DNA of 64,000 bases from Octopus vulgaris. Taxonomy: Eukaryota. The translations under genes and the position numbers were made by a program. The notes beneath the pieces were generated by a model that worked only from the letters and a program-made list of their open reading frames with translations, made no database searches and was not told where the DNA came from. Below are positions 25,781 through 26,280 of this stretch, one piece after another. The stretch spans positions 31,806,001-31,870,000 of the forward strand of contig OX597814.1 of the NCBI GenBank assembly GCA_951406725.2, written 5' to 3'. Position 1 is the first letter of the stretch. The number at the start of each line of letters is the position of its first letter.

Positions 25781-26280
25781 AATATAAATGAATATTTTCA
25801 AAGAAGAAGAATTTACAGATTTTTTCTCTTACGAGGTTTTTCACGCTGACTACTGATAATTTCTTTTAAAGATTTTATCCTCAATTGTTAATTTATATTT
25901 TTCACCGGAATAGTTCAATACTGAATTTTTATTCCGACTAGGCAATTTATTACCGAAATGCATTGCGAAAAAGCCCGCCATTTTCATAGATATGTAAGGA
26001 TAAACATTCGTACATGCTACGACGAATTCTACGGTTGGCTATCGAGTTTGTAATGTTATGTTTTTCTTATATTGCTTGAGTTTGTTGCACTGACGAACAT
26101 GAAATGCATATTCTGCATTAAATGCGAAATCACATGTGATATGTAACTGATTTCTTTTTTAAAATGATGTGTTTTGAAGTTTCGCATTCGGTAAAATTTT
26201 GTTTATTCTTAGTAGTTTTAACCGCATTGGTCCTTCTTAGCGTGTTGGTATCTACGAATAGTAGTACCCTCAATATAATA
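25781..26280 (+). mobile_element. ~490 bp non-coding hammerhead element (retrozyme-like monomer) between (TA)n tracts
   Basis: Collinear conserved blocks with 40921-41408 (TTTTCTCTTAyGAGGTTTTT, AATTTTTATTCCGA, CCGAAATGCA, GCATTCGGT, TCTTAGCGT, CCCTC.ATATA). Confidence 0.8.
26084..26147 (+). ncRNA. Type I hammerhead ribozyme
   Basis: Helix I GTTGCA/TGTAAC, core CTGACGA, helix II CAT/ATG plus ATGCA/TGCAT (A-C mismatch at 10.1/11.1), GAAA, perfect palindrome TCACATGTGA, AUA site ending at 26141. Confidence 0.8.

Follow-up and report, generated by a model that had tools for sequence, protein, structure and literature searches.

How did a non-coding repeat with a hammerhead motif in its interior come to lie between two (TA)n runs in the genome of Octopus vulgaris, with the same TA-rich letters at both of its ends? 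The repeat stands in a stretch of 64,000 nucleotides (assembly GCA_951406725.2, contig OX597814.1, forward-strand positions 31,806,001 to 31,870,000), which is called the window here and whose own numbering is used for all coordinates. A full unit of 496 bp (25790–26285, plus strand; family A) is flanked by (TA)n runs at 25752–25786 and 26273–26346, of which 25752–25786 and 26286–26346 are taken as the two halves of the target. The 13 bases ATATAATATAAAT that close the unit at 26285 also stand directly before 25790 (25777–25789, plus strand), as the last bases of an upstream unit and/or microhomology with the target. The TA-rich patch at 26273–26285 (plus strand), which runs into (AT)n, is the first of two fixed 3′ ends of the family (site 1), and the second (site 2) lies near 25890–25898, within unit positions 1–109 (25790–25898, plus strand), which in other copies form an optional tail. 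The window copy is truncated at its 5′ side just upstream of the unit junction and has neither tail nor second arm. No open reading frame of at least 120 amino acids was found over 25790–26285, and the GC content of the retrozyme units here is low (32–33%).

A sister element (family B) lies at 40682–41412 on the plus strand and consists of a 5′-truncated unit (positions 233–479) and one full 480-bp unit ending at site 1, with hammerheads at 40734–40779 (G10.1·U11.1) and 41214–41259 (predicted cut after 41253), both on the plus strand. The original prediction had called the family A copy collinear with, but diverged from, this 480-bp unit (40930–41409). This is borne out by an alignment with 40915–41412, which is collinear with 336 of 460 positions identical (73%) and a score of 338, as compared with 145 ± 14 and a maximum of 205 in 200 shuffles. 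Also correct is that the insertion is bounded by one TA-rich point: ATATAATATAAAT stands at both ends, and the corresponding junction of family B is internal, at about 40912–40935. The window copy is a non-LTR retrozyme, a young hammerhead repeat without coding capacity, which here is truncated at its 5′ side.

The type I hammerhead motif of family A (26084–26147, plus strand) is made up of GTTGCA (26084–26089), CTGACGA (26090–26096), helix II (26097–26125), GAAA (26126–26129), the palindromic helix III TCAC-AT-GTGA (26130–26139), the cleavage triplet AUA with the predicted cut after 26141 (unit position 352), and TGTAAC (26142–26147). The core CUGANGA/GAAA/NUH with A15.1-U16.1 is present, a hammerhead is retained in both families, and the helix letters quoted earlier for both are right as written. 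What had been missed is an A·C mismatch at 10.1-11.1, which replaces G-C in every family A motif listed; family B has G·U, and among 24 natural motifs from related subfamilies the position is G-C in 10, A-U in 6, G·U in 3 and unpaired in 5. In the accessible text of PMC4209133 the G10.1-C11.1 pair is described as highly conserved in hammerheads. Rfam returned no hammerhead at gathering score in the window, nor at E ≤ 10 on 26040–26200, and the minimum-energy structure of the isolated 73-mer is not the hammerhead (z 0.22); the motif is identified by its core letters and by covariation. Two patterns combining the core with helix III gave 383 and 861 matches in the genome and 0 when reversed. For the palindromic helix III a self-duplex between two motifs is predicted at −15.8 kcal/mol, the isolated hairpin not forming.

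Covariation was followed in the 24 motifs, in which 95.8% of the cells are paired as compared with 20–42% in slid controls; it should be noted that the kinship of the motifs inflates the pairing and double-change counts as well as the shuffle control. Double changes were found in 5 of the 6 pairs of helix I, 3 of 4 in helix II, 3 of 5 in the distal hairpin and 0 of 5 in helix III, and a first set of 12 motifs gave agreeing covariation. All five pairs of helix III are invariant in 24 of 24 motifs, with differences in the loop alone, which is partly so by construction because the collecting patterns fixed its stem. The claim that covariation implies selection on the ribozyme is supported by helices I and II and the distal hairpin; the stem of helix III does not covary. 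Helix I of family B may differ from that of family A by a shift of two base pairs rather than by five substitutions; in a wider alignment in-register covariation of helix I remains among the A-like motifs. Natural monomers, taken from cut to cut, have better predicted folds than shuffled ones (circular z −2.4, −3.1 and −5.7). Outside the ribozyme there are helices in which the 3′ part of a unit pairs with the 5′ part of the unit that follows, with site 1 enclosed between them, and they are kept across subfamilies, whereby these structures were derived from the same alignments and the junction helix itself holds few double changes.

A first look at the genome gave 1846 candidates for family A (40 scored) and 955 for family B (39 scored), which are not copy numbers; full units are 94.8–97.7% (A) and 92.9–99.6% (B) identical to the window copies. 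Insertions were mapped at 50 A loci and 63 B loci, picked from the best matches to full-length and short queries and from pattern matches, a sample that favours full-length loci and, in B, multi-unit loci, B having been enriched for arrays on purpose. The 3′ ends are fixed: in family A at unit position 496 or 109 nucleotides into the next unit (tail), with the cut site lying 144 or 253 nt upstream, and in family B at 479 or 126 nucleotides into the next unit. (TA)4 or more comes after them in 73/78 cases in A and 102/110 in B (together 175/188), as expected from the proposal that genomic (TA)n primes on a TA patch belonging to the element itself. The 5′ ends are scattered in both families. Most A loci have 1–2 units, and B loci have up to 32, head to tail with one hammerhead each. 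Copying through the cleavage site, which had also been proposed, is seen in family A in 58/78 arms and in family B in 91/110; A arms cross the site at most twice (0/78 more often), B arms up to 31 times. This difference may reflect ribozyme strength, age or sampling. Because of the A·C pair at 10.1-11.1 and because no A arm crosses the cut more than twice, family A may rarely cleave or circularise.

The expected unit-length permutation from a single round was not supported: the ribozyme is internal in every long-enough copy, which follows from the fixed positions of the 3′ ends behind the cut, the 5′ ends are scattered, and stops at the junction are at chance. Arms ending in the last 26 nt of the unit, pooled over this length because pieces shorter than about 25 nt escape BLAST, number 5/76 in A (window copy included; 4.0 expected) and about 5/108 in B (6.75 expected). 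A special stop at the cut site was likewise rejected (5′ ends within 6 nt in 3/76 A and 3/108 B arms as compared with 2.0 and 2.9 expected), as was a cleaved linear monomer as usual template, since the cut shows no accumulation of 5′ ends and the hammerheads within arrays are intact there. As a product of truncation the window copy is ordinary: synthesis would have started at site 1 and halted by chance after about 509 nt. What is of value is the footprint of the family as a whole. With one ribozyme and no tail the window copy could not yield a ribozyme-to-ribozyme monomer and is therefore probably a dead end.

The footprint has a second side. The original prediction missed the second 3′ end with the 109-nt tail and the inverted second arm, which together are the standard Penelope footprint. 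Both orientations are present at 28 A and 47 B loci, and wherever both ends could be classified (24 A, 39 B) a tail end is paired with a unit end, 24/24 and 39/39, that is 63/63 (binomial 2e-19 for independent 50:50 ends). Twelve more loci with two arms were kept out of the 63, ten for an atypical end and two as complex; L093, one of the twelve, is in another count scored as tail/tail. The 32-unit family B arm at L192 (L192–L193, G000:C1:64639658-64655253) keeps its one-unit inverted partner and the tail.

The two arms also share their haplotype. At common polymorphic sites they agree in 40/40 cases in A and 172/173 in B (212/213), whereas independent RNAs would be expected to give 25.9 and 124.6 agreements; 47 loci of A and 46 of B were compared, and the sites are not independent of each other. 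In family B there are 25 cases of a variant that occurs at just one of the sampled loci and is present there in every copy, in 11 cases on both arms; at L117 such a variant is present in 9/9 units, and at L116 both inverted arms are multimeric and of one haplotype. It is quite likely that both arms come from one RNA or one source, and since arms share haplotypes and single-locus variants fill all units, repeated reading of one monomer is favoured. Not all insertions are homogeneous, however. L118 (G000:C5, near 2.04 Mb) is an array with a three-unit periodic mosaic at three sites (XYYXYYZ), possibly from a trimeric or heterogeneous template or from later duplication, and at L122, L123, L125 and L126 odd letters are common to some units. 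These five loci count against a monomer circle, unless gene conversion took place later. Among the single-locus variants present in all copies, A>G and T>C changes together are enriched in B over post-insertion changes (14/25 versus 11/84, p 3e-5), which may reflect wrong polarity; an RNA-editing signature was looked for in these variants and rejected (A>G 7, T>C 9). ADAR prefers A·C mismatches, and that the mismatch of family A is switched by A-to-I editing is a speculation to which we attach very little weight.

That these elements are retrozymes with Penelope-like element (PLE)-type mobilisation appears to us highly probable. The reading that we prefer as a whole, and regard as likely, adds that the RNA is read across the ribozyme and the unit junction and is most likely a circle made by the ribozyme. 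The PLE reverse transcriptase/endonuclease, probably dimeric, would open both strands of genomic (TA)n, and each DNA 3′ end would serve as primer at one or the other of two TA-rich sites inside a single RNA, the helix closing across the unit junction helping to present both start sites. Reverse transcription would continue across ribozyme and unit junction, and a new haplotype would fill all units because one monomer is read repeatedly, as has been proposed for retrozyme circles (available part of PMC7229834). A circular template is plausible, with the chances about even that the template RNA is usually a monomer circle; reads spanning the junction cannot separate a circle from a linear multimer because both junctions exist as contiguous genomic DNA. 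More tentatively, and with less than even chances, a single circular RNA would be held by a dimeric enzyme, which probably belongs to the Hydra clade, while two reverse transcriptases go round it from two fixed starts, in which case the recurrent loss of G10.1-C11.1 would tune cleavage down so that templates survive.

Candidate enzymes are encoded in the same genome. A young Neptune-type PLE has a 4478-bp unit with an open frame of up to 1200 amino acids. A young Hydra-type PLE (L256:4413-7002; G000:C17, near 75.34 Mb) is 2590 bp long and intact, with copies 97–100% alike. Its 717-amino-acid frame gave no match in Pfam and has the RWK, DKT and CxCX5C motifs which, together with size and (TA)n targets, are given for the Hydra clade in the available text of PMC8557442; the placement is by these characters rather than by a tree. 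In 8 of 10 fully seen loci (12 sampled, 2 cut off by the stretch) this PLE ends at 2527 and 2590, one per arm, which is the same footprint as that of A and B, and 2 loci deviate. A hammerhead-like motif with the core CCGAAGA, read by eye, is present in its 3′ untranslated region, with cut-to-start distances of 43 and 106 nt as compared with 144 and 253 in family A. Lists of PLE candidates in the genome run to 7826, 1841 and 11790, from which the two young families and about 40 remnant loci were compared with A and B, and no DNA homology was found. We can only infer a partner PLE, because neither young PLE is homologous to A or B at the DNA level and the cut-to-start distances differ. A match at L183, considered as autonomous partner, turned out to be a two-armed sister-family insertion beside a PLE remnant. 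In the window itself lie a decayed PLE with reverse transcriptase and C-terminal GIY-YIG (21461–23080, minus strand), a relative of the young Neptune-type family, and a decayed Hydra-like PLE endonuclease region (44603–45016, minus strand).

The alternative that survives best, which we nevertheless consider rather unlikely, keeps the same PLE mobilisation and takes as template an uncleaved linear read-through of a genomic tandem array, with the hammerhead serving mainly for folding or protein binding or cleaving late. Unprocessed RNA is the main PLE substrate in vitro (PMC11167929), weak 10.1-11.1 pairs recur among the 24 motifs, family A arms are short, the L118 mosaic fits, and the odd letters of L122, L125 and L126 fit a register with both starts in one unit. 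In the best linear-multimer register, however, just 2/23 within-locus differences in B and 0/12 in A (2/35) are shared between arms, and in the three fitting loci the register coincides with the fold-back symmetry, so that conversion explains them too. Moreover, single-locus variants filling up to nine units and both arms need a step that multiplies a monomer, and repeated 5′ truncation would shorten the arrays in each generation. An improbable alternative is that an autonomous PLE has left the units behind, as solo pLTRs or as fragments of its 3′ side, and that the arrays were expanded later by unequal crossing-over in the manner of a satellite. Later conversion is indeed visible in L123 and L192, and Xenopus retrozymes, as far as the accessible part of the preprint goes, are homologous to PLE pLTRs with local amplification proposed (10.64898/2026.07.22.740005). 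Such an origin is opposed by head-to-tail units without an intervening open reading frame, by the two multimeric arms of one haplotype at L116, by conserved helices that can form only where the 3′ part of a unit is continuous with the 5′ part of its neighbour, and by 38 one-armed loci in which no common upstream coding sequence was found (one Neptune fragment, 35% identity); the existence of tandem forms and these 38 loci also bear out the earlier view that the copies are not mere 3′ fragments of a longer autonomous element. Very improbable is that the window copy is a deliberate unit-length product of one round on a circle, primed and ended at the same TA patch, for although 13 identical bases stand at both ends and the patch is where four more A arms and about five arms of B come to a stop, these stops are at the frequencies expected by chance and in a TA-rich patch microhomology with the target accounts for the neat end.

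How do the two families compare with known systems? To judge from sequence, the A and B elements are non-LTR retrozymes or non-autonomous Penelope-like elements, a fresh example of an already described type; retrozymes as non-autonomous PLE derivatives are already in print (10.64898/2026.07.22.740005, accessible part). The metazoan non-LTR retrozymes described in the available portions of PMC7229834 and 10.64898/2026.07.22.740005 are likewise non-coding repeats of low GC content, arranged head to tail and with a type I hammerhead in each unit, occurring as monomers, dimers and long arrays, and both PLEs as mobilisers and a circular template have been proposed for them. The unit of 480–496 bp is longer than the 150–450 bp first described (PMC7229834) and within the 51–972 bp of the preprint (10.64898/2026.07.22.740005). 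Different are the A·C pair at 10.1-11.1 of family A and that the elements are known here from genomic DNA alone; 3′ ends, tails and inverted arms are mapped here and not in the published accounts, as far as their accessible portions extend (PMC7229834; 10.64898/2026.07.22.740005).

With PLE insertions, as described in the accessible parts of PMC8557442 and PMC3846280, the families share partial tandems, an inverted 5′-truncated copy at the 5′ side, an often one-sided tail, (TA)n targets and a hammerhead inside the repeat. They differ in having no open reading frame, a tail of 109–126 nt instead of the published 30–40 nt, and a one-tail pattern that is strict and is combined with a shared haplotype. 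In vitro, Poseidon from Anolis carolinensis uses two internal reverse transcription start sites downstream of the hammerhead that define the tail, AT-rich DNA is cut and extended on both strands, and ribozyme cleavage is dispensable (PMC11167929). The layout of A and B, in which two start sites downstream of the hammerhead likewise define the tail, fits these two starts and the two-strand extension, although Poseidon is autonomous whereas A and B are non-coding, and the Poseidon start sites are described as not homologous to the cut DNA whereas those of A and B are TA-rich and resemble their target. The palindromic helix III is shared with the dimer-type PLE hammerheads of PMC4209133, from which, going by the available text, those of A and B differ in a longer helix III (5 bp with A15.1-U16.1), in a helix II with internal loop and distal hairpin, in the lack of an extra base between 9 and 10.1 and, in family A, in the loss of G10.1-C11.1. 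None of the papers listed in a literature search dealt with retrozymes of cephalopods or with a strict rule of one tail and a shared haplotype; supplements may hold such motifs, and subscription journals were little covered.

Several other repeats were noted on the way. A third hammerhead element at 54486–55515 of the window is two-armed, head to head, with the tail on the minus arm and decayed variant cores at 55319–55387 (plus) and 54700–54766 (minus); it has 2723 first-look candidates with 92–95% identity. Minimal-hammerhead, pLTR-like pieces with a CCGACGA core lie at 41602 and 24624 (both minus strand), the former directly behind the family B element. An old 58-bp remnant at 39543–39600 corresponds, with 78% identity, to the region that forms the tail in an A-like family, and tandem SINE-like repeats of 184–185 bp are present at 17568–18055 and 52156–52524, with more dispersed copies. 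Elsewhere in the genome (L185–L191, L225–L249, L103:1278-1329) there are many more hammerhead families that have GAAATCAC..GTGAT in common, and A at 10.1 recurs in several of them.

The return of animal retrozymes into DNA and the reason for the tails and inverted arms of PLEs have been argued mostly from co-occurrence and from one in vitro system. The A and B families offer a large and young dataset with fixed starts, a strict one-tail rule, haplotype markers and intact candidate enzymes in the same genome, with which twin priming and a circular versus a linear template become directly testable. From the two-end footprint it seems likely that one RNA is copied by a Penelope-type enzyme that starts on either side of the DNA cut. 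And if a dimeric enzyme does work on one circle, each insertion would be a two-armed record of one RNA molecule.
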